IMG/VR virus record: IMGVR_UViG_3300015259_000002
Span: 1-45,377 of that record
Strand: one strand, 5' to 3'
Source of the DNA: a virus
Lineage: Duplodnaviria; Caudoviricetes
DNA length: 45,377 nt
A program made the translations under genes and the position numbers. Shown here in pieces: positions 1-45,377 of this stretch. How positions within the stretch are numbered: position 1 is the first letter of the stretch; every line of letters starts with the position of its first letter. The notes below the pieces were generated by a model. That model did not search any database. It was not told the origin of the DNA and saw only the letters and a program-made list of their open reading frames with translations.

Positions 1-123
1 CATTGCCGTATGATCGGGCCGGTCAACTGCTCGCAATGTTCAGCTATCACCTTTCGCGTGGCATGATTATCGACGCACATAAATACGATATCATCTCGTA
101 AGATGATGCTACCAGCGTTAACC
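1..123. repeat. Terminal direct repeat, left copy (circular-assembly overlap)
   Basis: 1-123 is identical to 45255-45377 (cattgccgta...gcgttaacc), and the E1 frame continues through it. Confidence 0.97.
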
Positions 124-407
124 GGAGTTACATATTCCGTGATCGCAGACACGAGCAACTGATATCCGCACCTCTCTCGTATCTCATTCGCTATCACTTC
201 CGCTTTGGGACCGCACTCGGGAAATATCATCCTCTCCGCATTCTTCGGCTCGAAGCTATCCCCGTCAACGAGTACCAAATGACAACTCTTCCCGAGGGAC
301 GCAAAGAACACGGAAGCATATCGAGCCACGATCGAACCAACACCACCTAACCCGACGACGACGATACGCTGTCCCTCGCGTACCCTCTCTAATATGCGTT
401 CCCTCAC
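1..407 (-). CDS. E1/ThiF-family Ubl-activating enzyme, 5' part (continues at 45254->44885; 258 aa in total)
   Basis: Hand translation from GTG at 407, overlapping the JAB stop: MRERILERVREGQRIVVVGLGGVGSIVARYASVFFASLGKSCHLVLVDGDSFEPKNAERMIF...GPKAEV...DDIVFMCVDNHATRK. Shows GxGGxG, VDGD..N..R, K and D..CVDN..TR motifs. 407+370 nt = 259 codons. Confidence 0.93.
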   Translation of the reverse strand, partial: MRERILERVREGQRIVVVGLGGVGSIVARYASVFFASLGKSCHLVLVDGDSFEPKNAERMIFPECGPKAEVIANEIRERCGYQLLVSAITEYVTPVNAGSIILRDDIVFMCVDNHATRKVIAEHCEQLTGPIIRQ

Positions 408-1282
408 TTGCTATCCCTCCAGTATGTACTCGGATCGAATTCCGAAGGCCCTTTCTCTTTCTTCTCTCGGCGCCTCCTCTCTTTCTTCCGCCACCCAGAT
501 TCTTCGACCCACTTTTCCCCTTCCCAATGAGATTTCCAATAACCGCCCCCCCTCTTGTCATCCCCCTTCCATTTGTCATCCCCTTCCCATCCCCACTTCT
601 TGTGCTCTACTTTCGCAAACCACCCTATCGGCACCTCTTTGAGGTGTAGCGGCTCCGCCACGTCAATCGGTATCACATCCCCCGGTGACACCTTGCAGCG
701 CACCCCGTCGACAACAAAATCAACGTGCGCTGACAACCTCTTCCACTCACTATCACTCTCTTTGTTGTCGTAGTCAATATGCCCGAGAATGATATGCAAC
801 CCTGCCTTAAATTCCTCATCATCTTTGTCGGTCATCGACGCATAGGCGCCCCCATAACCGTGCGAATGAATATCCCCGACGATGACGCCCACCTCCCCCT
901 TCGGCAACACCGCCTCGAACTTCACATCGTAAGCCGACACCTTTTGTTCGGGAATGACAACATCCAACTCCCCTTGACTCCCATTCCGAGCTACTAACAG
1001 CCCGGCCGCTTCCGAACCGTTATGCCTTTTCGCCACCTCCCGAAAGAATGCCCACACTCGTCGGAACGATAGGGGGGAGAATTTGGGCAACTGAAATCTC
1101 ACTCCTGAATCCACCTCCCCCAAATGCGACGGCCCCTTATTCGCCTTTACGAGTGACGAGAAGAACGGCGTATTACGTCCGATGTACAGCCCATTTGACG
1201 TCAAGACGTAGAAGATAGGTACATCCTTCGGAAGTACCAACTCCTCTCCCTTGCGCGCAACGAACAGCGGCGCCTCGTTCAT
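404..1282 (-). CDS. JAB/JAMM metalloisopeptidase (Prok-JAB, PRTRC protein A-like)
   Basis: Catalytic Glu (GSEAAG) plus exact HxH-x7-S-x2-D motif (HSHGYGGAYASMTD); IPEQKVS motif; N-terminal YVLTSNGLY segment like PRTRC protein A. Confidence 0.92.
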   Translation of the reverse strand: MNEAPLFVARKGEELVLPKDVPIFYVLTSNGLYIGRNTPFFSSLVKANKGPSHLGEVDSGVRFQLPKFSPLSFRRVWAFFREVAKRHNGSEAAGLLVARNGSQGELDVVIPEQKVSAYDVKFEAVLPKGEVGVIVGDIHSHGYGGAYASMTDKDDEEFKAGLHIILGHIDYDNKESDSEWKRLSAHVDFVVDGVRCKVSPGDVIPIDVAEPLHLKEVPIGWFAKVEHKKWGWEGDDKWKGDDKRGGGYWKSHWEGEKWVEESGWRKKERRRREKKEKGPSEFDPSTYWRDSK

Positions 1283-2109
1283 TTCGTTGCCTTCCCTTTC
1301 ATAGCTCCCAACGTCGCCGCGAGCGCCGCTTCGGAGTTAATCCCAACTGCGGCCCCCTTCAGTCCATTGTGTCCCACAAAGAACATCCGTTCCGCCATTT
1401 CATCGACTGTCATTTTGGTGGGAAGATAATTCATCTTCAACCCGCACATCGGATCCTTCTTTGTCAACACCTCCCACTTCTCGATTGTGCCGATCCTCTT
1501 CTCACTCTTGATCGTCTCCGAGTACCAACTTTGCCCTTCATGTCGTTCGGAAGAGTAATTGAATCCCGCGAGCAAAAGATTCTCGACCAACTGTCGCGTG
1601 ATCAAATCCAAATTCTTCGATTCCTCCATCCCCACTTTCATCGGCTTGAATTGATAATTAGCCGTGCAAATCCACGCTAACGCCGTTTGCTCTGCCGCAG
1701 GATCGGGCCACTTCGACACGTTCAAGAGCGCCGGAAATAACAACTTCTCTTTCGCCTCGAACGGTGTGAGCGAAAAGAACGCTTCGTTCGCGTGCGTGTA
1801 TGACCACAACCCATCTCCCATCCGCATAACCATAACCATCGTCACAACAAACGGCAGAGATACCGTGACGTTCCGATATATCGCTTTCGGCCCATACGGT
1901 TCCGGCGAATCTTTCGCTATCCACTTCATCGTTCGAACAGCCGGCAACGTCTCATGCGCCAGGACCATTAAACCCCCGCGCCGATAAACCGCTCGCACAC
2001 CTCGGGGAACATACGTCGGTGCCGTTATCGCCGGCCTCTTAGCCGCCACGGCTAACGCCTCGACTAAGGGGAACGCGCCCAACTTGAAATTTTCTATGAT
2101 GATCGACAC
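1279..2109 (-). CDS. Prokaryotic E2-like conjugating enzyme (Prok-E2 family D / PRTRC protein B-like)
   Basis: SLPFVV...LLFPALLNVS...AWICT matches the L..P..N....IC catalytic-Cys pattern; lies between Ubl and JAB. Confidence 0.78.
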   Translation of the reverse strand: MSIIIENFKLGAFPLVEALAVAAKRPAITAPTYVPRGVRAVYRRGGLMVLAHETLPAVRTMKWIAKDSPEPYGPKAIYRNVTVSLPFVVTMVMVMRMGDGLWSYTHANEAFFSLTPFEAKEKLLFPALLNVSKWPDPAAEQTALAWICTANYQFKPMKVGMEESKNLDLITRQLVENLLLAGFNYSSERHEGQSWYSETIKSEKRIGTIEKWEVLTKKDPMCGLKMNYLPTKMTVDEMAERMFFVGHNGLKGAAVGINSEAALAATLGAMKGKATK

Positions 2110-2111
2110 AG

Positions 2112-2426
2112 TTACCGGCCCCCCTTCTCTGCCGCCTTCTTCACAAAGAGCAACATCCCCCCCTCGGTGACAGTCGCACTCCCGTCGGCCTGTTCCCCAT
2201 CAATGAGCGCCACGGCTTGCGGATCAATGTCGAGCAAGTCTTTCCACTCCTTCCGCACCTCTTCTACCGTCATCCCCACGGCCGGTAGAACGTAGGAGTA
2301 CAGCCCGTGGGAAACATTGACCATCCCCTTCGGCCTCTCTTTGAGCGACGGCGCATCGAAAACGCTCTCTACCGGCGCGCCGGACACCACCTCGGGACTC
2401 TCTTTCACTTTCTTCTGTTCGGCCAT
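2112..2426 (-). CDS. Ubiquitin-like beta-grasp protein with C-terminal KGG-R
   Basis: Strand-strand-helix pattern (VNVSHG..SYVLP..GMTVEEVRKEW), ALIDG, LLFVKKAAEKGGR; AGGAG RBS; first gene of the operon. Confidence 0.85.
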   Translation of the reverse strand: MAEQKKVKESPEVVSGAPVESVFDAPSLKERPKGMVNVSHGLYSYVLPAVGMTVEEVRKEWKDLLDIDPQAVALIDGEQADGSATVTEGGMLLFVKKAAEKGGR

Positions 2427-2531
2427 TGAATTCCACTCCTAGCTGTGAACTAACAGTCGGTCGATTGAGGCGCCGCACACTACGGCGCCCCCCACCTCTC
2501 CCCTTTACCGCACCTCCCCCCATAGCGAAAT

Positions 2532-2608
2532 TAGGAAATTCCCTTGAATTCTAGGTATTTACCCTTATTCTAGGGATATCCCTACCCCCTCTAGGGGAAC
2601 TCCCTACG
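2532..2608. repeat. Degenerate ~20-bp periodic array, consensus TAGG-N5/6-CCCT
   Basis: Units start at 2532 (TAGGAAATTCCCT), 2552 (TAGGTATTTACCCT), 2571 (TAGGGATATCCCTA) and 2592 (TAGGGGAACTCCCTA). Confidence 0.65.
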
Positions 2609-2709
2609 TGGGAACTTTCCACCACTCCTCCCTCGCCCGGCCTCACCGGGCCGCGCCCCTCCCCGCGCCCCTCCCGGCGGCGGCGTAGAAGTACCTGAGC
2701 CCGCCCCAC

Positions 2710-2785
2710 GGAGCAGTAGCTAACGCGGTGTCAGCGCCCGGCCGAAAACCGGGAGATGTCGGTTCAACTCCGACCTGCTCCACCA
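2710..2785 (+). tRNA. tRNA-Phe(GAA), atypical C33
   Basis: Acceptor GGAGCAG/CTGCTCC, anticodon arm CCCGG-CCGAAAA-CCGGG, T arm GTCGG-TTCAACT-CCGAC, encoded ACCA. Confidence 0.85.
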
Positions 2786-2790
2786 CCGAT

Positions 2791-2861
2791 CCGCTCGTAG
2801 CTCAAGGGCAGAGTAGCCGCCTGATATGCGGCCGACGGAGGTTCAACTCCTCCCGAGCGGA
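2791..2861 (+). tRNA. tRNA-Ile(GAT), CCA not encoded
   Basis: Acceptor CCGCTCG/CGAGCGG, D stem GCTC/GAGT, anticodon arm GCCGC-CTGATAT-GCGGC, T arm GGAGG-TTCAACT-CCTCC. Confidence 0.85.
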
Positions 2862-2994
2862 CCCCCTCCCCCAGATAGCGGCTCGTCCAAGATCGCAGAA
2901 GGACTTGAGCCCGGCGGAGAACCCTTCCCCCTCATGGTGACGCCGCGCAGCGGCGGGGCCGGAGGCCCTAAGAGGGTCGTGTCCTCGGCACCCC

Positions 2995-3065
2995 TGTCGG
3001 CGTCGGGCGGACGGGACGTGCGCGCCAAAGGCCGCACGGCACGGCCCGACCGACCGACGCTGACG
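2995..3065. other. Long GC-rich hairpin
   Basis: 2995-3021 pairs with 3039-3065 over 27 positions, with three single purine-purine mismatches and two G-T pairs. Confidence 0.7.
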
Positions 3066-3200
3066 GCAACAGATTTCCGATCCCAATCTGTCGTAGGCCG
3101 TAGGCGAAGGGGGGTGCGCGCTTTGCTGCCCGTAGGGCAGCGCGCCCCCCTGAGCCTGCTGTCCCTTCGCTGTTTATATATTAAGGAAGGAACTCATCCG

Positions 3201-3263
3201 ACTGAGTACACTAGGTACTCATAAACTGAGTACCCTAAGTACGCAGTGGGGAAAATTCCCCAC
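3201..3263. promoter_or_regulatory. Two tandem imperfect palindromes plus a third palindrome (operator/origin-like)
   Basis: ACTGAGTAC-N5-GTACTCATA (3201-3223), ACTGAGTAC-N5-GTACGCAGT (3225-3247), GTGGGGAA-AA-TTCCCCAC (3246-3263). Confidence 0.55.
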
Positions 3264-3743
3264 CTAGATATCCTTCAGGAAATCGAGGTATCCGCCGCCC
3301 TTGAGGTCATCGAGCCCATAGGTTCTTGTCTTCGACCCGGCCTTCGGGAATGGGGCGGCCAAGATAGCCTCTGATCGTTCCCCGATTCCTTCCCTTGTCA
3401 GCCTCAGTTCGATCCGGTCGCTCGGACCTTTTCCCCTTCCGAGACGAAGGGCGAATCTCTTGCTCAGGATTCCGGCCTCTTCGAGCCGCCGTATCGCGAG
3501 CCGGGAGGTTCTATCGCTGACTCCGGCCTCTCTACCGATCTGGCGGGCAGAGGTGGTCGTCCAGCCCTGAGGGGTACAGGGCCTCTTAGCGATCGTGATG
3601 GCGATGATCTTGAGGGACGGAGCGCATTGGACCCGGAATAGCCAGTCGAAGAGAATGCGCTGTTCGGCTCGTACTTTCTTGAACGAATCGTCGTTAAGTC
3701 TTTTTAGGCCAGGACTTTGGAGTTCTCGCCAGCCATTTGACAT
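3264..3743 (-). CDS. Winged-HTH DNA-binding protein (replication-initiator N-terminal-like)
   Basis: GWTTTSARQIGREAGVSDRTSRLAIRRLEEAGILSKR is a typical HTH_36-like segment. Confidence 0.75.
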   Translation of the reverse strand: MSNGWRELQSPGLKRLNDDSFKKVRAEQRILFDWLFRVQCAPSLKIIAITIAKRPCTPQGWTTTSARQIGREAGVSDRTSRLAIRRLEEAGILSKRFALRLGRGKGPSDRIELRLTREGIGERSEAILAAPFPKAGSKTRTYGLDDLKGGGYLDFLKDI

Positions 3744-3895
3744 CTGGAGCCCTCTTGGAAGAGGCGGAACCGGGGGTTCAGTCGGGGCGCTTCCAAGTTC
3801 GCCTCGACATCCCCCCCGATCCTGCCAGGGACGGATCTACCGCCATATTCTAGAACGAGATTTTGGCGGTCGAAAAGATTTTCTCCGGATTTCAC

Positions 3896-3924
3896 TTGCC
3901 TAGCCTAAGCCGTCGCGATATTCT
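3896..3924 (+). promoter_or_regulatory. Sigma70-like promoter of the early arm
   Basis: TTGCCT-17 nt-TATTCT, 9 nt before ATG 3934, with no SD. Confidence 0.55.
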
Positions 3925-3933
3925 TCTGTCGCT

Positions 3934-4146
3934 ATGAGTCACCGCAATGCCGAGTTCGATCCTGTGATCGAGTCGGAGAAGCTAGAGAAAGAAGGGAAGT
4001 GGCTTGAAGCGCGTTGTTGGGGTTGCGGGGATAAATTGCCCTTTAATGAACTCCCGAGAGTGATCGGAAAAGCGACCGAGCAACATAAGCCGTGTTGGCA
4101 ATGCGGTGGCACCAGAATCACTTGGATTATTTGTGAGCGACGATGA
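3934..4146 (+). CDS. Small zinc-ribbon protein
   Basis: Two CxxC pairs (CWGC, CWQC). Confidence 0.7.
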   Translation: MSHRNAEFDPVIESEKLEKEGKWLEARCWGCGDKLPFNELPRVIGKATEQHKPCWQCGGTRITWIICERR

Positions 4147-4328
4147 GTGAGAGACCGAACCTTTTCGATTGTCGGTGTATCGAGTGCGGTGGTTTCGTTG
4201 GAAACCTGGTCTTCCGGGGAAAAGAGCCGCCCCCGATCGATTTTAGCTGCCCTCATTGTGAGGTCGGGCTCCTCTACTGGAAACTCTTGGGAGAGTACCT
4301 GAACACCACTTTCAAATCCGATGAGTGA
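4143..4328 (+). CDS. Small zinc-ribbon protein
   Basis: CIEC and CPHC; ATGA overlap with the previous gene. Confidence 0.7.
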   Translation: MSERPNLFDCRCIECGGFVGNLVFRGKEPPPIDFSCPHCEVGLLYWKLLGEYLNTTFKSDE

Positions 4329-4569
4329 CAACAACCACGCGGCTCCTGGCGGGCGCTACACGCTCCAGGCGCTCGAAGGGAAGATCGTCGCAGTCGGGGC
4401 GACGGATAACCTAGCGCACGCCGTAGAGAAGGCCCGTCAGGTCGCTCAGGCGCGTCAGAAGTACATCGTGATTCACGATCTCAAGGACCCGAGGCTGACT
4501 CGGGACCTGAAGGGTTCTGAGGTGACGTCCTTCAAACTCTACGGCTGCTACATGGCGGGGTACTTTTGA
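4321..4569 (+). CDS. Hypothetical protein
   Basis: Coupled ORF in the early operon. Confidence 0.65.
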   Translation: MSDNNHAAPGGRYTLQALEGKIVAVGATDNLAHAVEKARQVAQARQKYIVIHDLKDPRLTRDLKGSEVTSFKLYGCYMAGYF

Positions 4570-4596
4570 TGAGGAAATGCCGTGAGCGAGCCGGTC

Positions 4597-4679
4597 TTGG
4601 GGGTAGCTTAAGAAGCGTTCGCATCAGAGCGCCGGGGCTGGAAACCCTGGAGGTGTCGGTGCAAATCCGTCCCCCTAAA
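4597..4679 (+). ncRNA. tRNA-like RNA, anticodon GGA (Ser), enlarged D-loop, no long variable arm
   Basis: Acceptor TTGGGGG/CCCCTAA, D stem GCTT/GAGC with 17-nt loop, 6-bp anticodon stem around CTGGAAA, T arm GTCGG-TGCAAAT-CCGTC. Confidence 0.65.
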
Positions 4680-4703
4680 ACCGGCTCGCTCTTAGCCGTG
4701 AGA

Positions 4704-4791
4704 GGGTCCTTAACTCAAGCCGCTACGGAGCGGCGTGGTAGAGCCTTGGACATGAGCCAGGGGGTTGCCGGTTCGAGCCCGGCAGGACCCT
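4704..4791 (+). ncRNA. tRNA-like RNA, central triplet ATG, hairpin inserted in D-loop
   Basis: Acceptor GGGTCCT/AGGACCC, inserted GCCGCT-ACGG-AGCGGC, anticodon arm CTTGG-ACATGAG-CCAGG, perfect T arm GCCGG-TTCGAGC-CCGGC. Confidence 0.7.
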
Positions 4792-4798
4792 CTCTTTT

Positions 4799-4875
4799 GC
4801 CGTGATGGTGTAACTGGAAAACATGCCGGTCTTTCAATCCGGAGGATGCGGGTTCGAGTCCCGTTCACGGCACCA
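4799..4875 (+). tRNA. tRNA-Glu(TTC)
   Basis: Acceptor GCCGTGA/TCACGGC, anticodon loop CTTTCAA, T arm GCGGG-TTCGAGT-CCCGT, encoded ACCA. Confidence 0.88.
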
Positions 4876-4877
4876 AA

Positions 4878-5219
4878 ATGAAGAGTCCATTCCGTCAGAG
4901 CGCAACGATCGGCGAGGTGTACGGTCCCGCGATGGTCATCGAGGATCAGGCTGCGGCCGATGCGTACTTCGATCTGATCGTCGCTCACCTGATGACGTGG
5001 GGCGAGTCGAAGGAATCCGCCGAGAAGATGGCCAGAGACAATCTGGCCTACGTCGCTGGATACCACGGCGACGCGACGCGCCTTCGAGTCGAGAGGCTCT
5101 TTAACTGCGCTCACCCGTTCTTCGGGCCGATCGCTAAGAACGGGCCTCCGACCGACGAAGAGGCTCTGCGTGCCGGAATGATCTTGGGTAAGAAACTGAG
5201 GAAAGAGAGAGAAAGATGA
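4878..5219 (+). CDS. Hypothetical protein
   Basis: Protein-like composition; coupled to the next gene. Confidence 0.75.
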   Translation: MKSPFRQSATIGEVYGPAMVIEDQAAADAYFDLIVAHLMTWGESKESAEKMARDNLAYVAGYHGDATRLRVERLFNCAHPFFGPIAKNGPPTDEEALRAGMILGKKLRKERER

Positions 5220-5422
5220 TCGACGATAACGAGCTAACCGGCCTCACCGAAGAGGCTGAAAAGGTCTATTTATCTAGTCCAGCTAGGATCCGGAGACACA
5301 CTCTGGGAATCTTGCTCCAGGTGTATCGAGTCCACCAGGGATGTCCGATCATGCTTCCGAAGAGAGTAGCGGATCCTCTGTTCATCGACTCCGAGAAAGA
5401 GATAGACGATGCTAGCGGATAA
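5216..5422 (+). CDS. Hypothetical protein
   Basis: ATGA overlap with the upstream ORF. Confidence 0.6.
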   Translation: MIDDNELTGLTEEAEKVYLSSPARIRRHTLGILLQVYRVHQGCPIMLPKRVADPLFIDSEKEIDDASG

Positions 5423-6425
5423 GTTGCACCAGGTCGCATCGACTGAGGCGGAGAAGGACGAAGAGGCGAACGCCTATCACTGGAGGCGTCCTTCTCTCGC
5501 CGGTCCCACTCGCTGTCAGCGTCAGCTGGTGTACAGGGCCACGAAAGAACCACGGACGAACCCGATCAGCGGCCGCTTCTTCCACGTCCTAGAGGCGTCC
5601 TCCTGGGACGAAGAGGTGATGAAGGACTGGATCCGCCGCGCCGGCCTCGCCATCAGCGCAGAACAGACCGAGGTGAACACCGCCGTCGGCGTGGGCCATA
5701 TCGACGGCCTCATCTGCGGTGATCTGGCGAAGCCCCCCGTTCTTCTTGAAGTGAAAGCGATCAACCACTTCACCTGGCAGCGATACGACTCCGGTAACGA
5801 GCTACCGATTGACTACATGACGCAATCGGCTCTCTACCTCGCCTCCGAGGATCTCCGGAAACTCGAAGTTAAGAGGGCCGTCCTGCTCATCGTGAACAAG
5901 AACACGCGCGCCCTCCTGGAGTACGTCCTCGAGTATGACCCGGAGATCGACACCCTTTTCCTTGTGAGTCGCACCAACAGCAACGGTGATACCCATATCG
6001 TCGATCCAGGGGACCCGGACGCCGTAGTCCTACTGAACGTCATCAGCGAGTCGATCGATCGACTCGATCAAGTGAAGTCACACGCCGGAGCCGGGACGAT
6101 GCCGCCTCGCCCGTTCGTCAAGGGCGATTGGCACTGCGATTATTGCTCGTGGAAAGGTAAGTGTTGGTCGGATTACGACGTAGAACGGGACATCGTTGTC
6201 GGTGTCGATACAAGGATCGATGAACCGAAGATGGCGTCCACACTCGAAGAGTACGAGGCGCTCGGGCGTGCGGTCCGTCGATGCGAGATGGAGCGTGATG
6301 ATCTCCGCCCTCAGATCGTGAAGGCTATCGTCGCCGCCGGAGTCGAGACGATCCACTGCGGTAAGTACAAGGCGACACTCAAGAAAACCAAGAAGAGCGA
6401 GATGTTGAAGGTGGAGAAAGAATGA
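5409..6425 (+). CDS. PD-(D/E)XK Cas4-like exonuclease
   Basis: N-terminal Cys (CQRQ), GHIDG, LLEVK, YMTQSALY and C-terminal CDYC-x5-C. Confidence 0.88.
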   Translation: MLADKLHQVASTEAEKDEEANAYHWRRPSLAGPTRCQRQLVYRATKEPRTNPISGRFFHVLEASSWDEEVMKDWIRRAGLAISAEQTEVNTAVGVGHIDGLICGDLAKPPVLLEVKAINHFTWQRYDSGNELPIDYMTQSALYLASEDLRKLEVKRAVLLIVNKNTRALLEYVLEYDPEIDTLFLVSRTNSNGDTHIVDPGDPDAVVLLNVISESIDRLDQVKSHAGAGTMPPRPFVKGDWHCDYCSWKGKCWSDYDVERDIVVGVDTRIDEPKMASTLEEYEALGRAVRRCEMERDDLRPQIVKAIVAAGVETIHCGKYKATLKKTKKSEMLKVEKE

Positions 6426-6625
6426 GCATATGCGAGGAGTGCCAACTGAGTGTTCAGGCGATCCTTGAGACGGCCCACCAGGAGCTAATAGAGTCGCGTA
6501 AGTTTTTGGATCTAGCCGACTCGAAGTTGAACGACTCCATGAAGAACCTGAAGGCGTCTATGATCTTAAGCTTCATCGGATTGGGGTGGTTCTTGGGCTC
6601 TCTTATCTTCTCGCTCTCTTGGTGA
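6422..6625 (+). CDS. Small membrane-anchored protein
   Basis: Coiled-coil-like segment and a C-terminal hydrophobic helix. Confidence 0.65.
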   Translation: MSICEECQLSVQAILETAHQELIESRKFLDLADSKLNDSMKNLKASMILSFIGLGWFLGSLIFSLSW

Positions 6626-6628
6626 ACC

Positions 6629-7489
6629 ATGAACGATATAGTGAAACCTGACGCTAAGTCGGTGACGCTCGAAAAGGTCGTCATTGGAGGAGACCTGGCC
6701 GCCCTGACGCCCTCTGAGCGGCTCTCCTATTACCTGGAAGTCTGTCGAGCTACCGGCCTAAATCCGGCAACTCGACCCTTCGAGTACCTGAAACTGAACA
6801 ACAAACTCGTTCTCTACGCGAGAAAGGACGCAACGGAGCAACTCCGAAAGCTGAACACGGTCTCGATCACGAAGCTGGAGACGACTCGCCTCGAAGATGT
6901 GTACGTCGTAACCGCCTACGCGAAGGACTCGAAGGGTCGGGAGGACTGCGCTACTGGCGCGGTGACGATCGGCTCCATGAAGGGCGATAACCTCGCCAAC
7001 GCCGTGATGAAGGCCGAGACGAAGGCGAAGCGGCGAGTCACCCTCTCGATCTGTGGTCTCGGTCTCCTGGACGAAACCGAGGTTCCGACCGTTGCGGGAG
7101 CTATCCCGGTGGTCGTGGATAACGAAACCGGGGAGATCCTAGGGGACGCTCTAGGACCGCCAGGAGACAAACCCTGGGATCGTACGACTCAGAATAAGCC
7201 CCCTTCCGTCGTGGAGCGCGAGAAGGCCGCTCGGGCTCCCGCATACGGGGCTCTCTACAGCGCAGCCCGCTCCTACCTCCTCGAGAGCGAGGGGATGGCG
7301 GCGGCCGCGAGTAACCCGAGGGTCTCGGCGATCCTCAAGGAATGGGGCCTCAAGCCCGGAGCTAGTGAGACCGATATGGAGGCGATCCGAAAGACGCTCG
7401 TTGAGAAAACCAATTCCCTCCGTGGAGGATCTCCGCCGACCGCCTCAAAGCAAGAGGCCGGCGTGATCCCGGAAGGGCTGCCGTTTTAA
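6629..7489 (+). CDS. Single-strand annealing recombinase (RecT/Red-beta-like)
   Basis: VC...GLNP...PFEY, NAVMKAETKAKRRVTLSICGLG and an acidic ..GLPF tail; adjacent to the exonuclease. Confidence 0.78.
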   Translation: MNDIVKPDAKSVTLEKVVIGGDLAALTPSERLSYYLEVCRATGLNPATRPFEYLKLNNKLVLYARKDATEQLRKLNTVSITKLETTRLEDVYVVTAYAKDSKGREDCATGAVTIGSMKGDNLANAVMKAETKAKRRVTLSICGLGLLDETEVPTVAGAIPVVVDNETGEILGDALGPPGDKPWDRTTQNKPPSVVEREKAARAPAYGALYSAARSYLLESEGMAAAASNPRVSAILKEWGLKPGASETDMEAIRKTLVEKTNSLRGGSPPTASKQEAGVIPEGLPF

Positions 7490-7561
7490 CCCGAAGGGTG
7501 CCGTCCGCCTCGGTGAGCAGTTCTCTCTTTCTCTAAATCTCCTGTGGCGGCCCTGAAGTGG

Positions 7562-7592
7562 TCCCAATCGCGCGGCACGGTTGGGAGTTTTT
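7562..7592 (+). terminator. Putative intrinsic terminator
   Basis: TCCCAATCG-N7-CGGTTGGGA followed by GTTTTT. Confidence 0.5.
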
Positions 7593-7616
7593 ACCCTCTA
7601 TCAACGAAAGGAAACC

Positions 7617-8069
7617 ATGAGCATCATCGACGAAGTCGTTCAGGAAATCGCGAAGTCCGGTGAGAAGGGCATCACGTTCGAACAGATCATCGACGTTCAG
7701 AAGAAGTTCGGGAAATCGTCCACTCCGGAAGGTGCCTGTGGCGCCGCCGGGTCGATGGTCTCTCGACTCAACCGACGCCGGATGATCTTCACGGACCGAT
7801 CGGTGCGTCCGTACCGATACAAGCTGTCGAACTCGATCAACACGACCGAGTACGTGAACGGGAAAGCTGAAGGCCACGCCCCGAATCCCCCGAGACGGAA
7901 GCCGCGCCGCCATGTCATCCCCGGTGGATTCTCGGCCGCGCTCGGACGAGCCACACGAGACTTCGTTGCCTCGATCGAGACTCTGATCGAGATCGAAGTG
8001 AACCGACGCGTGAAGAACTCTGTTAGGGATCTCTGGAAGCGGCAGATCAGCGATCTGATCGAGGAGTGA
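7617..8069 (+). CDS. Putative winged-HTH DNA-binding protein
   Basis: AAAGGA RBS before ATG 7617; GITFEQIID...SMVSRLNRRRMIF...YRYKL wHTH-like pattern. Confidence 0.6.
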   Translation: MSIIDEVVQEIAKSGEKGITFEQIIDVQKKFGKSSTPEGACGAAGSMVSRLNRRRMIFTDRSVRPYRYKLSNSINTTEYVNGKAEGHAPNPPRRKPRRHVIPGGFSAALGRATRDFVASIETLIEIEVNRRVKNSVRDLWKRQISDLIEE

Positions 8070-8413
8070 TGGCAGAGATAAACGAGGAGTTCTTGAGGAA
8101 GATCGCTGCCGCCTCCGACTTTCGGTTCCGTATCTCGAAGCATCAGCCGCACTTCTTCTTCGACGATCTGTGGGGATTCGAAATCCTCGGCAAGAAGGGA
8201 GCGATCTGGACGTACAGAGGTAATGTGTGGGCTGGCCTCTGGGCCTCGGAGGCTGATATTCTAGCTAGCCGGCTCAATGAGGCCAGAAAACTACTCGACA
8301 TAGATAGGAACGAATTCCGCCGAGACAAGGGACGTCACTATGTCTACTTCAAAATCGACCCCGCCGAGGTATCTGAAGCCGCACGGTTCCTACAGGCGGA
8401 TGGGCCTTTTTAG
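8066..8413 (+). CDS. Hypothetical protein
   Basis: Coupled ORF with GAGGAG RBS. Confidence 0.7.
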   Translation: MMAEINEEFLRKIAAASDFRFRISKHQPHFFFDDLWGFEILGKKGAIWTYRGNVWAGLWASEADILASRLNEARKLLDIDRNEFRRDKGRHYVYFKIDPAEVSEAARFLQADGPF

Positions 8414-8567
8414 GTCTCTCTGGCTCAAGATCGTGTGCTTCTGGGTCGGCCATGACTTCGCTGTGAAAGAGAGCCGGTGGCGGGTTGCGACAGATGACCC
8501 GGACCACGTGTGGACGTCCTACGTCCGGTGCGATCGGTGTGGCGTGTTCTGGAGTCGCAATGTTTGA
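8400..8567 (+). CDS. Small phage zinc-binding protein (C-x4-H...CxxC)
   Basis: CFWVGHDF...RCDRCG; start at ATG 8400. Confidence 0.65.
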   Translation: MGLFRSLWLKIVCFWVGHDFAVKESRWRVATDDPDHVWTSYVRCDRCGVFWSRNV

Positions 8568-10079: not shown

Positions 10080-10345
10080 GCAAAGCGAAGCCCGAGCCCA
10101 CGGGACCCTTCGGTCGCATCCGAGCATGGTGGGATCGCGTGCTCTGCGGTGCCGACATTCACGATGTCGTGGTCCCGGATGGCTATGAACTCTGGCCGAT
10201 CCCGACGAAGTCGAGTGCGTCAGTGTACGCGGACGGCTATGTCGCGTGCCGACGCTGCGGCCTCAAGCATTACCTCGACCGGCTCGACCCGGTGAACGAG
10301 GACGTGCCGGAGATCGCGCCGGAAGGAAGGATCATCGCGCGATGA
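10076..10345 (+). CDS. Small zinc-binding protein
   Basis: VLCGADIH...ACRRCG. Confidence 0.65.
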   Translation: MSKAKPEPTGPFGRIRAWWDRVLCGADIHDVVVPDGYELWPIPTKSSASVYADGYVACRRCGLKHYLDRLDPVNEDVPEIAPEGRIIAR

Positions 10346-25115: not shown

Positions 25116-26618
25116 TCAATCCACGAGGGCGAGAACCTTCTCGGCCTCGACTTTCTGTTCCGGAGTCGGGGACGCCTTTCGCTTCGCTGAGGCTCGGATC
25201 GCTCGCTGAACACCCTCTGACGGGTAGGTGTGGTGTTCGACGGTGACGTCCTCGAGCCCGAACGTGGGGTCCTCAAGCCAGTACCGGATCTGATCGATCG
25301 TGAACCCGGTCTTATGCAGGTCTCCTGGGTTCGATTGGCCACCGTAAATCTTGTAAATCTGGTTCATGAAGATGTCGGGCGACTTGTCCTTAGCCGACAT
25401 CACGAACTCACAGCAACTCTCGAGGTCAGGGACCTCAATGAAGAGAGAGCCCCCGGGCTTCAGAGCCGAGACCCATTCCTTAAGGATCTGGGCGGTCTGC
25501 TGGAATGAGAAGTGTTCCAGGATGTGCGAGGCGCGGATCGCGTCCGCCTTCCCGTACTTTTCGATCAAAGGACGCATGTTCGTGATGTCCACGCGCTCGT
25601 CGGAGGACGGCTCGTAGAGATCGACCGTGATCCATCCTTCCTTGTGGCCCGGAGTCCCGAGGTCGAATCGAACGACGTCGGGTTTCTTCGAAGGGTCGAT
25701 GGGGTTCGCGATCCCGGTCACGAGAGAAGGATCGAACTTCTCTCCGGGACGGAGATACCAACTGATAACCTCACCGTCCTGCCACGCACCACGTCGGAGT
25801 CCAGGGTGATAGAAGAACCGTCGCCCCGTGTGAATATCGACGTGAACACACTGAACGCTCGTATCGCAGTACACCTCGGTGAGACCGTACTTCGACGCCT
25901 TCCGGCAGTAGTACACGTCCTCCGTCATCTTCCCGCAGCCCGGTGCGACGTCTTGGATATCGTTTCCAATGTCCACGAGACCGCGAGCTAGATCAGAGTA
26001 GATCATCGCGGATGGGATCAGCGAATCGACGGTCTTGAACCACGGAGGCGGGATCTTCGCGATGGTTGTTGGGATGTGAATGAGCGTACACCCCATCCCG
26101 ATCGCTGTGTTTTTCCCTCCTACGATGTCTCCGAAGTTCCAGTCTTCGAATCCTCCCATGTACCCATCGACGAGAATGAGCGAGTGCGGGGGAACCTGTT
26201 TCGACATATAGTTCCCGCCGATACACGCTACCGGGACGCCTCGATCGAGCGCGTCCCGGTAGATCGTGAAGAGTTTATTGACGGCGTCAGGGGGAGCGAT
26301 CGTGTCGTCGTCCCTGAAGAACAGCCATTCGACGTTGTTCTTGAGCGCGTACTCGGCGATGCAGTTTCTCGCATCCGCGACCGGAAGTTGTCTCTGGCCC
26401 GGAGAGCGAACGGACTCGTTCTTGACCCAGTCCCATCGCACGTCGGTTGGATACACGTATCCAGCACCGAAGTTGATCGGCATGTGCTGTGTCCCGAGGC
26501 TGATCGCGAACTCTGTCGGCACCATCCCGAGGGACGGTATCCCGATCATCAGGCCGCGATTGATCTTCGTGACAGGGGCGACGAACTTCCGACCTCCCAG
26601 TTGCGCCAATGAACTCAC
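25116..26618 (-). CDS. GT-A/GT2 glycosyltransferase fused to a SAM methyltransferase-like domain
   Basis: ARN, WLFFRDDDT, GMGCTLI and EDVYYC motifs; C-terminal ASHILEH...LKPGG.L.IEVPD. Start taken at the GTGA overlap (26618). Confidence 0.85.
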   Translation of the reverse strand: MSSLAQLGGRKFVAPVTKINRGLMIGIPSLGMVPTEFAISLGTQHMPINFGAGYVYPTDVRWDWVKNESVRSPGQRQLPVADARNCIAEYALKNNVEWLFFRDDDTIAPPDAVNKLFTIYRDALDRGVPVACIGGNYMSKQVPPHSLILVDGYMGGFEDWNFGDIVGGKNTAIGMGCTLIHIPTTIAKIPPPWFKTVDSLIPSAMIYSDLARGLVDIGNDIQDVAPGCGKMTEDVYYCRKASKYGLTEVYCDTSVQCVHVDIHTGRRFFYHPGLRRGAWQDGEVISWYLRPGEKFDPSLVTGIANPIDPSKKPDVVRFDLGTPGHKEGWITVDLYEPSSDERVDITNMRPLIEKYGKADAIRASHILEHFSFQQTAQILKEWVSALKPGGSLFIEVPDLESCCEFVMSAKDKSPDIFMNQIYKIYGGQSNPGDLHKTGFTIDQIRYWLEDPTFGLEDVTVEHHTYPSEGVQRAIRASAKRKASPTPEQKVEAEKVLALVD

Positions 26619-27178
26619 GCACCGCCTCCGAAACCCCACCCATCGGCGGGGATAAGGGCCAGCCGAACAGTGGAAACCGCAGTCTGAGCGCCGGGCCAGT
26701 TCTTACCGACACCGCCCAGGTGAGCCGTCGCCTTAACGTCAGTAGCGACAGCCGACGCCCACGCAGTAACAGACGCACCAGCATTAGCGAAGAACGCGTT
26801 TTGAGCAGAGGCTTCAGCGGACGCCGTCAGAGTCGCGACGATGGGACCGGCAACCTGAACGATGCCGAGTTCTCCACCACGAGCCGAAGACGCCCACACC
26901 CCGGCGATGAGATCCAAAGCCGAGGCCGTCTGAACGATGAACGGAAGGAAGAGGCTCGCCCTCGTCGTCGAGGACGTGTTGAGAGCGGCCGTCGCGGTCT
27001 CAAGGAACGCGATCTGGCCAGTCGGGACGGTGACGGTCGTCGCCTCGTTCATAAAGGCGACGCGGTACATCTCACCGTTCGGACCGAAGAACGCAGCCCC
27101 GTTGGCCTGCGTCCAGCCGTCCGACTTGATGTTGTTGATTTCGGGCACCGCGAAGCGGAGCCCCGCACCGAGAGCCAT
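26615..27178 (-). CDS. Putative capsid decoration/cement protein
   Basis: A/T-rich beta protein downstream of the MCP; ATG 27178 with RBS. Confidence 0.6.
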   Translation of the reverse strand: MALGAGLRFAVPEINNIKSDGWTQANGAAFFGPNGEMYRVAFMNEATTVTVPTGQIAFLETATAALNTSSTTRASLFLPFIVQTASALDLIAGVWASSARGGELGIVQVAGPIVATLTASAEASAQNAFFANAGASVTAWASAVATDVKATAHLGGVGKNWPGAQTAVSTVRLALIPADGWGFGGGA

Positions 27179-33323: not shown

Positions 33324-33334
33324 GACGGTCTCCG

Positions 33335-33870: not shown

Positions 33871-33888
33871 GATCCCTCTATTTTACAA

Positions 33889-41501: not shown

Positions 41502-42152
41502 ATGCCCGTCGCGCAACTGTGCGCCTCAAGAAAGAGAGAACCGCCCATGCTCTTCCCCGATCCATCTTCCTCCTCCTCACATCCCCCCCTCTCCCCTCCC
41601 GTCTCCCTCCTCGGTGTGTCCCTCGCTGGCGTCTACGGCTACGGCCTCACTTTCGCCGGGTACCCCTTTAGCCGTACGACGTACCACCGCTCCTTTCTCA
41701 TCGAAGCGCACCGCTTAACAGAGAGCGGCATCGTCGTCGATCAACGTCCTTGCCTCTCCGATCCCTCCTTCCGCCCGATCCTGTGCCTGTCCCCGATCCT
41801 CTCCCTTAAACTCCCCCCCTCGGGATACCGCCGATTCAACATCCTTCACGCGGACCCCGAAACCTCTCCCATCATCCCTGCTTTCCCGATGCTCTTCTCG
41901 TGGCCGCACATCCCCCCGCGTGGCGTCCTCCTCGACGAATTCGGCGCGCACGCCTACGCAATGTTCTGGTACCTCCGCGGCGCCCGCATCGCGTATCGCT
42001 CCGGCCCTAACCTACTCTGGCACCGCTCAGGCCCTTCCCTCGAAGAACGCCGCGCCGCCCCCCCCTCTATCCCCTGGACGCCGTCCGAAAGCTACCTCGA
42101 GCCGATCCCGCTAACCCCTTCCTCCGAACCCTCGCAACGCCACTCGTGGTAA
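41502..42152 (+). CDS. Hypothetical Pro/Ser/Leu-rich protein (start uncertain)
   Basis: Only long ORF here; converges on the 42209 hairpin; composition is driven by C-skew. Confidence 0.45.
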   Translation: MPVAQLCASRKREPPMLFPDPSSSSSHPPLSPPVSLLGVSLAGVYGYGLTFAGYPFSRTTYHRSFLIEAHRLTESGIVVDQRPCLSDPSFRPILCLSPILSLKLPPSGYRRFNILHADPETSPIIPAFPMLFSWPHIPPRGVLLDEFGAHAYAMFWYLRGARIAYRSGPNLLWHRSGPSLEERRAAPPSIPWTPSESYLEPIPLTPSSEPSQRHSW

Positions 42153-42208: not shown

Positions 42209-42243
42209 AAGGGGCGCCCGGAAAGAGAAACCGGGCGCCCCTT
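42209..42243. terminator. Hairpin terminator between convergent genes; closes the Ubl operon
   Basis: 13-bp perfect stem AAGGGGCGCCCGG/CCGGGCGCCCCTT with a 9-nt loop. Confidence 0.7.
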
Positions 42244-42263: not shown

Positions 42264-43187
42264 CTACTCTTCCCCCTCCCCCTCCTCATCGTCCGGCACA
42301 TCCCTCTTCTTACTCCTCCCCCCCTTTCCCTTCTTTCCTCCCTCCTCATCGTCCTTCATCCGCCGCGCCATTTCCTTGAAGAACGCGCTCATTAACCCTG
42401 CAAATATATGATCGGGAACCTCCGCGAGCCCCCCCGACTTCCCACTCTTATCTACCGTCACAACTCCCGCCCCCTCTTTCACCATCCGCTCTAGCGTCTC
42501 TAAGATCCCTCCCATCCCCCCTCCCTCCAGCCCGTCATATAACGCCTTCCCATGATCCATCCCGCAGTTCGGACACAACCTCTCTTTGTCCTTGCCTATC
42601 GCCATCCCCCCAATCGAATATCCGCACCCCGAATCGCTCATCGGCGCCGCTTCCCCCCTCCGTGCCCGGTGATCCTTAATCCCAGGTAGCGCCGGCTTAT
42701 GATCAAAGAGCACCTGCGCCGATTCCGTGCATACCACCGGCGACGCACACCTCACCACGCGCCAATCCTGTGCGCGTTCCAACTTTTCCGCCAACTTGCA
42801 CATCGTCTCAATCTTCCACCGCGGCATGTCCACAAAGATTCCCCCGCGCCCACTCGGAAGATGAACTAACTCGAACAAATTTGATCCATCGAGCGCCGGC
42901 AATAACTCCTCATGCGCCACCGCTGCAAAATGCGCCGATATCGCCCGCCCCTTCACAACCCTCAACCTCTCAAATTCTTCCGGCCCCTCCCACTTCCCCG
43001 CTCGATTAGGATACATCCGCACCGCCACCGTTATATCTTTGGGAAACGGCCCCTTCACTTCCGCGTTCAACTGCAACATCGTCATATACTCCTGAATCCC
43101 CTTCCACTTCTCTACCAACGGCGCCACATCCTCTTCCCTCACTCCCATCCCCACAGTTACCTTATCGCCTATCTCTTTATCACTCAC
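42264..43187 (-). CDS. Unknown 307-aa protein, last gene of the Ubl operon
   Basis: GTG 43187 with GGAGGG RBS, 1 nt after the ATPase stop; C...CPNC..DH cluster and charged tail. Confidence 0.75.
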   Translation of the reverse strand: MSDKEIGDKVTVGMGVREEDVAPLVEKWKGIQEYMTMLQLNAEVKGPFPKDITVAVRMYPNRAGKWEGPEEFERLRVVKGRAISAHFAAVAHEELLPALDGSNLFELVHLPSGRGGIFVDMPRWKIETMCKLAEKLERAQDWRVVRCASPVVCTESAQVLFDHKPALPGIKDHRARRGEAAPMSDSGCGYSIGGMAIGKDKERLCPNCGMDHGKALYDGLEGGGMGGILETLERMVKEGAGVVTVDKSGKSGGLAEVPDHIFAGLMSAFFKEMARRMKDDEEGGKKGKGGRSKKRDVPDDEEGEGEE

Positions 43188-43188
43188 G

Positions 43189-44883
43189 TTATGCCCTCCT
43201 AGTTTCGACGGACACAACCGACATCCCATTCGGAACGTCCACATAGTTCGCCACATTCCGCGCGTCCAACCTCCCCACAATCGCGCCCACTTGCCCATCA
43301 ATTTCCTTAACAAACCTATCAACCGATATCCCTCCCTCCCCCCCCCTGCGTTCCTCATTCATTGCCACTTCCGCCGCACTCTCTGCCGCCGCGTCCACAA
43401 CTGCGGCTGTTAGAAAGTCGCATCGCCTCTTTTCGACCGGCCCCCCCCTCGCGAACCGCACAACCGCTACAGCCGCACCGCTCATCCCGAAAACCCTCTC
43501 GGCCGAGAGCGCCGCAAACTTGTTGGTCGAACTCTCTTTGATCGGCCGCCCCCTCAACACCTTTTCTGCGACGGCCACAAACGAACGCCGATCGAGGCGC
43601 CCGAACCTCTCTACCTTCGCACCGATCCTCCGCAACACCGCCGGATCTACTTGCGACGCCACATTCGTCGTCGCAATGAACAGTATGAGTGAATCCGCCA
43701 CTTCCCGCCGCGTTGTATCGAGCCGCTGCAACAAAGTCGTCAACAGCCGATCGGCAACACCGTCAAAACTCGATCCCCTTTCCGCCGTCAATCCATCTAT
43801 CTCTTCCATAACAGCGATAACAGGCAACTGATATCGCTCCCCCTTGTAAGTGAACTCCTCTCGCGCCGCTTCCTCCACCTCGCGAAAGAACGTATCCAAA
43901 TTGGCATCGGATTCCCCGTACCACTTCGAGAGCACCTCCGCCGCTCTCAACTTAAACACCCTATGCGGCAACTCATCTACCTTCACACCGCACACCTTAG
44001 CCATTTCATCATATACGCGCCGCCAAAGCCCCAACACCGAGAGCGTTTTCCCGCTCCCCGATACCCCTTCTAGCAACCGCGTCGCACATCGCCGCAACCG
44101 ATACTTTCTTCTCAACTGCGGCGCCGTCATTTCCACGCGCACCCACTCCGCCAATTCTTCGATGAACTTCGGCGGATTCCCGATATCCCTCGACACCACC
44201 ACATCCGGCACCGAATCGGTGGATAGATACTTACGCTTCGCCTCTTCCACCGGCGCCGGTATCACATCGAATGCCATTTGCCGCTTGTGACATACGATAA
44301 CGCTATCACCCGGCCGCACACCCTTCGCGCGAATTCTCTTCTCTAGGTCATCGGTGACTCTATATACCGCCTTCCGCCCTCCCCCTTTCGTTTGTTCGAT
44401 CAACACCCTATCGGTGCCGATGATCCTCTCTAGGATCGTCTCATCCCCAATCGCCGTCATCGCCCTCGATACCGATAGAACCGTGTTGCTCCCCTTATCG
44501 GTGATAACCGTATCCCCGAGAGCGAGCGACTTCGCCTCTATATATTCGGGTAGCAACACACTCGCATTCTCCCCGTTGTCAAATATCACGTCAACGCGCT
44601 CCGGCTCTTTCCCCTTCATCTTCTCTTTGTATTCCTCGGGCCGCTGCACAACGGACGGCCTCAAGAAAGTGCCATACCTCATCGGCCCCATCATCAACTC
44701 ATTCAAGAGCGCGTAATACTTCTCAGAAGCAGCCCCTTTTACTATCAACTCCATAACGTCGTTGCACAACTTCGAGTGGGGCTTCGACCCCGCGTTCCCT
44801 TGCGACAGAACATCTGCCAACAGCGCACGTCGTTGCATAACGTCCTCTTCGGCGTCCAACAAAATATCTTTCACCGATGCCAC
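43189..44883 (-). CDS. ARC/Mpa-type proteasomal AAA+ ATPase homolog
   Basis: N-terminal helix then GPMRYGTFL, two OB-like domains (..GDTV.., RPGDSVIV..AFDVIP), VPDV..DIG, GVSGSGKT, LSKWYGES, AVMEEID, IATTN, DPAVLRR and ARC-like VRFARG...DFLTAA. Confidence 0.88.
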   Translation of the reverse strand: MASVKDILLDAEEDVMQRRALLADVLSQGNAGSKPHSKLCNDVMELIVKGAASEKYYALLNELMMGPMRYGTFLRPSVVQRPEEYKEKMKGKEPERVDVIFDNGENASVLLPEYIEAKSLALGDTVITDKGSNTVLSVSRAMTAIGDETILERIIGTDRVLIEQTKGGGRKAVYRVTDDLEKRIRAKGVRPGDSVIVCHKRQMAFDVIPAPVEEAKRKYLSTDSVPDVVVSRDIGNPPKFIEELAEWVRVEMTAPQLRRKYRLRRCATRLLEGVSGSGKTLSVLGLWRRVYDEMAKVCGVKVDELPHRVFKLRAAEVLSKWYGESDANLDTFFREVEEAAREEFTYKGERYQLPVIAVMEEIDGLTAERGSSFDGVADRLLTTLLQRLDTTRREVADSLILFIATTNVASQVDPAVLRRIGAKVERFGRLDRRSFVAVAEKVLRGRPIKESSTNKFAALSAERVFGMSGAAVAVVRFARGGPVEKRRCDFLTAAVVDAAAESAAEVAMNEERRGGEGGISVDRFVKEIDGQVGAIVGRLDARNVANYVDVPNGMSVVSVETRRA

Positions 44884-44884: not shown

Positions 44885-45377
44885 TCACACCGCCCTTTCT
44901 GCCGCCACTCCGGGCAGCTTCACCACGTCGGCTCTCGCCTCAACAATATCGAACACCACTTCCGCAAAATGATGTTCCCCAGATAGGACCGTATACGCCG
45001 CGTTCAACATCATCGACGCCACGGCGAGATTCGCGAATAGCACTTGAGGGGTAGACGAAATCATTTCGATGCAACTCAACTCCGTCGGCAACTTATCCAC
45101 CGGGTTTGCTATCTCCGGATGAAACCTCGATAGCGTCGGTGTCTTTGTGACTCCCTCTCGCCGATAGAAAAGCTGCACGGTCCCGAAAGTACCCCGCTTC
45201 TTCCCTTCCACTCCATCATTCCCCCCTGACACGAGAAATATATCGCCTGTCCCGCATTGCCGTATGATCGGGCCGGTCAACTGCTCGCAATGTTCAGCTA
45301 TCACCTTTCGCGTGGCATGATTATCGACGCACATAAATACGATATCATCTCGTAAGATGATGCTACCAGCGTTAACC
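44885..45377 (-). CDS. E1/ThiF enzyme, 3' part (joined to 407->1 across the circular junction)
   Basis: CVDNHATRK, LVSGGND, ELSCIE (candidate catalytic Cys) and PQVLFAN...A motifs. Confidence 0.93.
   Translation of the reverse strand, partial: VNAGSIILRDDIVFMCVDNHATRKVIAEHCEQLTGPIIRQCGTGDIFLVSGGNDGVEGKKRGTFGTVQLFYRREGVTKTPTLSRFHPEIANPVDKLPTELSCIEMISSTPQVLFANLAVASMMLNAAYTVLSGEHHFAEVVFDIVEARADVVKLPGVAAERAV
45255..45377. repeat. Terminal direct repeat, right copy
   Basis: Identical to 1-123. Confidence 0.97.

Follow-up and report, generated by a model that had tools for sequence, protein, structure and literature searches.

A predicted ubiquitin-like conjugation module with an ARC-related ATPase in a phage genome

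Why would a phage of about 45 kb carry genes resembling those that attach ubiquitin-like proteins (Ubls) to other proteins, together with a relative of the unfoldase that reads a different tag, Pup? The question is raised by IMG/VR record IMGVR_UViG_3300015259_000002 (Caudoviricetes), whose 45,377 nucleotides were analyzed over their full length and are referred to here as the window. Its minus strand encodes a Ubl, an E2-like protein, a JAB peptidase, a ThiF-type E1, and an AAA+ ATPase related to ARC/Mpa. With moderate confidence, we read these genes as an intact five-gene module that would tag proteins with the Ubl and then unfold them independently of a proteasome, host proteins being the most likely targets; this reading draws on predicted gene functions and on analogy with characterized relatives. 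The initial annotation of this DNA had proposed a self-contained pathway for tagging, untagging, and unfolding, which gene identities, catalytic residues, and linkage to a complete phage genome support as a reading.

Because the two window ends share an exact 123-bp direct repeat (bases 1 to 123 equal bases 45255 to 45377), the genome corresponds to a circle of 45,254 bp, and IMG/VR classes the record as a complete virus with direct terminal repeats. The second repeat copy (45255..45377) is the circularization overlap and interrupts the E1 gene. On this circle, all six minus-strand open reading frames (ORFs) of the annotated operon were recovered at unchanged positions: the Ubl precursor (104 aa; 2112..2426), the E2-like protein (276 aa; 1279..2109), the JAB/JAMM metallopeptidase (292 aa; 404..1282), the E1 (258 aa across the join; N-terminal part at 1..407 and C-terminal part, with the crossover-loop C197, at 44885..45254), the AAA+ ATPase (564 aa; 43189..44883), and an ORFan of 307 aa with a CPNC motif and a charged tail (42264..43187). 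The recomputed spacings (in order, a 2-nt gap, two 4-nt overlaps, and two 1-nt gaps) agree with the annotated gaps of 1 to 2 nt or overlaps of 4 nt. As had also been described, the operon ends at a hairpin, a 13-bp GC-rich stem at about 42209..42243 between the last gene and a convergent ORF (fold z of -4.66, with 0 of 200 shuffles equally stable). This hairpin is a probable terminator, though its U-tail is weak and a terminator scan gave no call. No sigma-70 promoter was called upstream of the operon.

That the window edge splits the E1 gene and that reads link the Ubl block to the virion genes are both confirmed by other assemblies. A run that is possibly the source run (X1) gave one contig of 45,284 nt, opened elsewhere, with 0 differences over positions 1 to 12000 and 33000 to 45377. 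In a run from a second study (X2), pieces bridge both edges of the block (2350 to 3413 and 41103 to 41781), one piece continues beyond base 1, and depth is similar (about 2 to 7) across the module block and the virion genes. In another assembly (locus L115), E2, JAB, E1, and AAA lie in one stretch that includes the whole 258-aa E1. A chimera or misassembly of the operon was rejected on these grounds. The gene set (terminase, P22/SU10-like portal, scaffold, major capsid protein, SU10 adaptor, and internal-virion-type genes) fits a podovirus, and the element that carries the module is a small freshwater phage.

Is the 104-aa protein a Ubl? An AlphaFold2 (AF2) model, Foldseek, and the structure comparison VIA agree that it is a beta-grasp Ubl, as first proposed. 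The AF2 model (predicted local distance difference test [pLDDT] of 80) has a confident core at residues 35 to 101 and a low-confidence N-terminal tail of about 33 residues. Nearly all Foldseek rows are ubiquitin-, NEDD8-, MoaD-, or ThiS-type beta-grasp proteins (probability 1.00, best E value 1.9e-3), and VIA superposed the model on MoaD (1fm0) with a Z score of 8.3 and a root mean square deviation (rmsd) of 2.2 over 67 residues. No Prok_Ub profile match was obtained, and the sequence profiles of the Ubl and the E2-like protein found no significant match in the PDB. The C terminus reads AEKG-GR, in which a conserved K101-G102 pair precedes a 2-residue GR tail, and G102 is invariant in 62 aligned Ubl sequences. 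The 64 Ubl matches divide into 18 that stop at the Gly, 38 with short tails, and 8 fused to the E2, a spectrum that resembles the processing by JAB shown for Bub (PMC11601596). Standalone Ubls carry a median N-terminal extension of 30 residues (n = 48, starts called mechanically). The closeness of the fold to MoaD and ThiS, together with a ThiF-like E1, would also suit a sulfur-carrier or small-molecule chemistry of the ThiS/ThiF type (for example, nucleic acid thiolation) in place of protein conjugation. We consider this very improbable, as no sulfur-transfer genes recur in the 68 bacterial loci described below and the constant partners of the Ubl are an unfoldase and an E2-fold protein with an invariant Cys.

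The 276-aa protein has no Pfam match, and none of its 71 homologs matches any E2 family. With its model (12-row alignment, pLDDT of 74), Foldseek found nothing in the PDB at an E value of ≤0.001 and only uncharacterized viral proteins in BFVD. In a second look with VIA, the top 15 rows were all UBC-fold proteins (Z of 3.0 to 4.5, rmsd of 3.9 to 5.0 over 99 to 132 residues), and a wide structure search gave many UBC/RWD rows at Z of 3.5 to 5, with actin capping protein as the top row. C148 lies in the motif L128-L-N130...W146-I-C148 (LLNxS...WICT) and is present in 71/71 homologs, and the family has a further invariant motif, NxSSExHE. Its hidden Markov model picks up proteins of large phages that weakly match Prok-E2_D. 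We are fairly confident that the model represents a diverged E2 with C148 as the putative catalytic residue. The annotated E2 identity is thus favored by weak but consistent UBC-fold matches and the invariant Cys, but finds no support from Foldseek against the PDB or from Pfam. A complex prediction for an E1 dimer with the E2-like protein (score of 0.00) gave no verdict and was used neither for nor against this assignment.

The remaining three members were identified by Pfam matches and a PDB profile match, which bear out the annotated JAB, E1, and ARC-related ATPase. JAB matches PF14464 (E value 3.2e-7, passing the cut-off), and its best NCBIfam family is TIGR03735 (PRTRC_A), with which it shares a similar N-terminal part (E value 3.3e-12; 46.4 bits against a cut-off of 101.8). 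Its motif comprises E91 and H139-S-H141-x7-S149-x2-D152, with H139, H141, S149, and D152 found in 60/60 homologs; E91 corresponds to the conserved Glu once a 1-residue insert is taken into account, and an apparent loss of this residue (E to S90) was rejected as an alignment slip. The E1 matches PF00899 (E value 5.7e-17, passing the cut-off), and its longest match, scored with the whole protein, is to TIGR03736 (PRTRC_ThiF; E value 3.8e-12; 46 bits against a cut-off of 144.75). It has the motifs G19-x-G-G-x-G24, D48-G-D50, and D113-N114 as well as C197, which is present in 59/59 homologs. The catalytic motifs described at first as intact (JAMM, LLN...IC of the E2, and the glycine, VDGD, and CVDN motifs and Cys of the E1) were all found as described.

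The ATPase matches PF00004 and PF16450 and consists of an OB region followed by the AAA domain. Its family profile placed Mpa/ARC at the top of the PDB matches (E value 4e-70) over nearly the full length, the alignment beginning at Mpa residue 75. Walker A K279, the pore loop W321-Y-G, Walker B E360-E361, N407, and R418/R419 could be assigned. The C terminus, ETRRA, is without a GQYL/HbYX motif, and a penultimate Tyr or Phe occurs in 2/45 homologs. Of the annotated ARC/Mpa type, the relationship by profile holds, but the protein is not Mpa, being far under the TIGR03689 cut-off (94.6 bits against 504.75), without GQYL/HbYX, and with EE in Walker B. A direct proteasome link is likewise unsupported: GQYL/HbYX is missing, and of the 35 operon-bearing genomes tested, which are incomplete metagenome-assembled genomes (MAGs), only 6 have proteasome genes next to one for a Pup ligase. 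Raw PF00227 matches occur in 27 of these 35 genomes; because the E. coli control also matches, they are mostly single and probably HslV-type genes. No Pup, PafA/Dop, or 20S genes were seen in the window or among recurrent neighbors of the module. The sixth gene, annotated as the unknown last gene of the operon, has no credible homolog: a search of 1.84 billion representatives returned the ORFan itself and one weak hit (a repeat protein, E value 6e-4), the Atlas gave no hit, and it is absent from the 68 bacterial and 45 viral loci, so that it is not a core part of the module; by its layout it would be transcribed together with the other five.

Where does the module come from? Searching bacterial genomes with the E2 profile gave 68 loci, for the most part in MAGs of Planctomycetota and Verrucomicrobiota, with E2 in 68, JAB in 65, Ubl in 62, E1 in 60, and AAA in 58, the misses falling mostly at contig ends. 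The bacterial order is AAA-Ubl-E2-JAB-E1. At 49/68 loci, the five genes are joined, usually on the upstream side, to a further set (RING-like, second ThiF, UBC-like, unknown, second Ubl-like, and JAB-like, labels that come from weak Pfam hits and inspection), forming a whole operon of 11 to 12 genes; the five genes stand alone in 4/68, and 15/68 are cut by contig ends or are without a strong ATPase match. A profile comparison in global mode found no similarity between the E2 family of the module and the upstream UBC-like E2. The phage holds the downstream five genes only, with the ATPase shifted from first to fifth place, and its module was likely captured from the bacterial operon. The annotated pairing of a Ubl cascade with an ARC-type ATPase is thus real in the phage, but it is not unique, coming from a widespread bacterial operon and recurring in phage-like elements. 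Planctomycete RING-bearing Ubl operons were reportedly described by Burroughs in 2011, in an account that may already include this bacterial operon. In most of the 68 loci (for instance, L011:2749-12384), two different Ubl cascades flank one ARC-related ATPase, and an optional second AAA gene follows this ATPase (14 ORFs in 13 loci).

Has such a unit been taken up more than once? The viral set comprised 45 IMG/VR loci from an E1 scan, and the metagenome set comprised the best 80 of 213 loci. Our own profiles detected JAB in 43, Ubl in 34, the E2-like protein in 33, and AAA in 15 of the 45 viral loci. The ARC-type module of five genes is also present in two further viral records, L070 and L071; the former has a phage replication module, and the latter has a portal-like gene, ParB, a helicase, and a CheckV completeness of 81%. 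Metagenome contigs L122, L124, L132, L136, L173 (a near-copy of L136), and L176 also have the module without the upstream half. In them it lies among small ORFs, and matches to a helicase, integrase, HNH, or replication-initiator gene occur nearby in all but L176. In none of the phage-like carriers examined are AAA, Ubl, E2, JAB, and E1 accompanied by the upstream RING/E1/E2/Ubl/JAB half. A tree of four proteins (72 rows and 1335 columns, without duplicates) places the carriers at five separate positions, and a single origin was rejected when seven carriers were forced together in a 33-row subset (delta logL 551, approximately unbiased test P value [p-AU] 8.5e-6; fast search, 2000 replicates). 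The strongest argument that the ATPase works for this Ubl is the repeated retention of exactly these five genes, and the phage of the window kept the ATPase despite its shift in position. A five-gene unit maintained by phage-like elements in five or more lineages points to what is minimally needed for function in a bacterial operon so far undissected. Variants were observed in two carriers: L124:3479-8125 has the order AAA-Ubl-JAB-E1-E2 with an integrase gene downstream, and at L071:6780-8863 two E2-like genes lie in tandem, of which the first has no WxC motif and the second is fused to the Ubl.

Single-protein locus scans with the ATPase gave nothing, as did the E2 alignment in viral contigs, and the alignments of Ubl, JAB, and AAA varied too much to serve as scan seeds. 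Since L070 and L071 later surfaced via the E1, such pattern scans miss real relatives, and the counts are lower bounds. Among INPHARED phages, the ATPase had no match and the E1 had one weak match.

Most of the remaining viral loci hold E2-JAB-E1-Ubl cassettes of large phages, in which the ATPase is of another kind or missing (L072-L102, L113, and L114, on contigs of up to 572 kb). Some have a second ThiF gene, which in L072 lies beside RNA polymerase genes, and others have a downstream Cdc48/PAN-like ATPase. A cultured phage, Bacillus phage KLEB27-3 (L200; OM634661.1), carries a ThiF gene beside a gene with a PRTRC_A domain (gp194-gp195) and could offer a tractable model of Ubl systems borne by phages. 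Homologs of the JAB, E1, Ubl, and E2 domains of the module are present in the large-phage cassettes and KLEB27-3 gp194/gp195, the Ubls often terminating in GEKG or GRKG/GKKG. The E1s of the cassettes, in contrast, fall outside a 99%-supported clade formed by this E1 and 58 bacterial ones, the E2s are long, and any ATPase present is of the Cdc48/PAN-like kind, with AAA_lid_3, and not ARC-like. Whether transfer ran from large phages to bacteria or the reverse was not concluded from the E1 tree, a quick version with its root on long branches. The abundance of these related cassettes in large phage contigs would suit a chaperone pathway in which tag and motor assist the assembly or disassembly of proteins of the phage itself; lambdoid phages likewise employ a Ubl (TAPI) and a JAB (TAPK) in tail assembly (PMC1779556). 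This explanation seems to us decidedly unlikely, as the module lies outside the structural gene run with a strand bias of its own and is common to bacteria and to unrelated carriers at separate tree positions.

Base composition bears on both the origin and the use of the block. From 41500 to 45254, and continuing over 1 to 2700 to a total of roughly 6.5 kb, G exceeds C on the minus strand with a GC skew of -0.2 to -0.5; elsewhere, the skew is mostly near 0. At four-fold sites, the six genes have 500 G and 137 C, compared with 1030 G and 1217 C in nine structural-arm genes on the same strand (Fisher P value 2e-50), and the convergent 201-aa ORFan (41547..42152, plus strand) shows the mirror image of the block bias. 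The same skew ranges from -0.48 to +0.16 in 47 bacterial ATPase matches; the strong bias of the block is not seen in the bacterial homologs, six other carriers show none, and the L070 and L071 modules match their own flanks in base composition. The simplest reading is that the block arrived recently and in one piece from an unsampled, strongly strand-biased donor. No att-like repeats flanking the block were found, nor was a close relative of this phage by which the insertion could be dated. The bias supports capture and also keeps alive the idea that the block is recent passenger DNA that the phage does not use. Such cargo would explain the foreign four-fold-site composition over about 6.5 kb, convergent ORF included, and the presence of tRNA genes at one block edge (tRNA-Phe and tRNA-Ile, 2710..2864, plus strand, divergent from the operon start); distant relatives of the phage (three found via a Cas4-like gene and one via the terminase) are without Ubl, E2, JAB, and E1 in the stretches examined. 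Still, we judge an unused block quite unlikely: it takes up about 5.4 kb of a 45-kb genome with all ORFs intact and tightly coupled after rearrangement, the sequence from the second study is identical where covered, and the five genes recur in carriers that match their flanks compositionally and do not share a single origin.

How would a functional tagging and unfolding module operate? From the chemistry of the respective families, JAB would trim the GR tail to expose Gly102, and the ThiF-type E1 would adenylate the Ubl and then carry it as a thioester on Cys197. The E2-fold protein may accept the Ubl on Cys148 and pass it to target lysines without an E3, as proposed for Bil, and JAB could also take it off again. 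By analogy with Pup and Mpa, the ARC-related hexamer would grip the roughly 30-residue flexible N-terminal tail of the Ubl in its W-Y-G pore loop, and the tagged protein would be unfolded or disassembled without docking on a 20S core. Since the pore loop is present but GQYL is missing, the motor would unfold or disassemble and not degrade. The disordered N terminus of Pup serves as the threader for Mpa, which docks on the 20S core by GQYL, and Mpa of C. glutamicum disassembles ferritin without the proteasome (PMC8755798). Host defense or regulatory complexes, early in infection, would be the most likely targets; host proteins are our preferred guess, drawn from gene position and repeated capture. 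A broader version, which we put forward tentatively as possible, is that phages repeatedly took a hybrid pathway from the Planctomycetes-Verrucomicrobia-Chlamydiae (PVC) group, in which a folded tag attached by E1 and E2 has a Pup-style threader tail and a proteasome-free ARC-type unfoldase dismantles chosen host proteins. If so, this would be a phage-run ubiquitin-unfoldase pathway that bridges ubiquitin and Pup logics, and a 45-kb phage would own a portable, reversible disassembly machine for, e.g., host defense complexes.

Several observations weigh against the tagging and unfolding proposal. The E2 fold is based on matches at Z of 3 to 5, below the reliable level of the tool, with no Foldseek hit in the PDB. 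Walker B is EE instead of DE throughout the ATPase family (46/48). The phage proteins lie on a long branch in the four-protein tree and retain family-conserved columns less completely than the median homolog does (E2 28/32, JAB 25/32, E1 40/45, and AAA 33/35). The foreign strand bias is what would be expected of recent cargo. Finally, for the six metagenome carriers the label phage-like comes from small ORFs and from genes for a helicase, integrase, HNH protein, or replication initiator, no virion genes having been seen in their flanks.

Could the module instead serve as a weapon against competing phages? BilABCD tags phage tail proteins (PMC10557695) and resembles the module in its order Ubl-E2-JAB-E1, the Cys residues on E1 and E2, and the lack of an E3. 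A Bil-like system acting in superinfection exclusion or lysogen protection would dismantle the structural proteins of competitors, and two features would agree with it, the nearby integrase of carrier L124 and the layout of the module as a moron-like unit that is transcribed separately and ends in a hairpin. We regard this role as unlikely, since no integrase was found among roughly 50 window ORFs scanned with PHROGs, PADLOC gave no hit for the Ubl, E2, or JAB, and the 258-aa E1 is of the single-domain ThiF type, unlike the IAD-AAD-CYS architecture of BilD. The module further differs from BilABCD by its unfoldase and by being phage-borne.

Comparison with other known systems again favors a distinct variant. 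Class 6d/PRTRC systems (Iyer 2006, PMC1779556; TIGR03735, TIGR03736, and Prok-E2_D) share with the module a small standalone Ubl with a terminal Gly, a separate Cys-bearing E2, a JAB with an extra N-terminal domain, and a single-domain ThiF E1. The module differs in that its JAB and E1 score under the PRTRC_A and PRTRC_ThiF cut-offs and 0/72 members of its E2 family match Prok-E2_D, the link via large-phage homologs being indirect and sub-cut-off; it also has no recurrent alpha-helical 6d protein or ParB, has a fixed ARC-related ATPase, and is phage-carried. ARC/Mpa (TIGR03689; PDB 5kwa and 7px9) has the same OB and AAA architecture, a near full-length match, and an Ar-Hb-Gly pore loop, but besides the differences of the ATPase given above, the module has none of the Pup, PafA, Dop, and 20S genes, and the tag linked to it is a folded beta-grasp protein with E1 and E2. 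Bub (6E/DUF6527; Ye 2024, PMC11601596) likewise has a homodimeric-type ThiF E1, JAB-processed Ubl precursors, and some Ubl-E2 fusions, whereas it forms Tyr/Ser oxyesters and includes a DUF6527 protease; the module has invariant cysteines and no such recurrent partner. For Thermofonsia and planctomycetes, Kaur et al. 2020 (PMC7159879) describe a Ubl system tied to the conjugation of Pup, which also links a Ubl cascade to Pup-type machinery and occurs in the same phylum, but theirs has a RING tri-ligase and Pup ligation, whereas the module keeps the ATPase alone, without a Pup ligase or RING. Judged from its sequences, the module is predicted to resemble a cascade of the class 6d/PRTRC or Bil kind in its workings, with an Mpa-like motor attached, and on the features compared it fails membership in PRTRC, Bil, Bub, and ARC/Mpa.

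To our knowledge, the bacterial Ubl conjugation systems tested so far (Bil and CBASS Cap2) are antiphage weapons, and we know of no tag other than Pup that is read by Mpa. No account of a phage-encoded Ubl-E1-E2-JAB set with an ARC-type ATPase was found in the open-license PMC and bioRxiv literature. The term "AAA" does not occur in the accessible part of Iyer 2006 (PMC1779556), JAB, Ubl, and ThiF are absent from that of Iyer 2021 on jumbo phages (PMC7824862), and the available portion of Rambo 2021 (10.1101/2021.07.29.454249) reports Asgard viruses with E1-like genes only. A phage-borne Ubl cascade with a proteasome-free ARC-type unfoldase in several separate lineages is thus apparently an undescribed variant, one in which Ubl chemistry is turned to the phage side. 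It opens two questions, whether an ARC-type motor can read a beta-grasp tag without a proteasome and what the phage tags.

Further features were observed outside the module. In the record of L070, L195:8564-13366 contains QueC-like, GTP cyclohydrolase, and queuine tRNA-ribosyltransferase-like genes, suggesting a predicted 7-deazaguanine DNA modification in that phage. In the window, two 21-bp direct repeats at 3201..3245 adjoin a helix-turn-helix gene (3264..3743, minus strand) resembling replication initiators; repeats and gene, close to the skew change, form a candidate origin. A tRNA-like cloverleaf at 4584..4691 (plus strand) lies inside a 20-bp inverted repeat (fold z of -3.9) and has a T-arm-like stretch in common with the two window tRNAs; ARAGORN and Rfam gave no call, and it is possibly a degenerate or novel tRNA-like RNA. 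Among the virion genes, the region at 25116..26639 (minus strand) encodes a methyltransferase whose N-terminal part is weakly glycosyltransferase-like.

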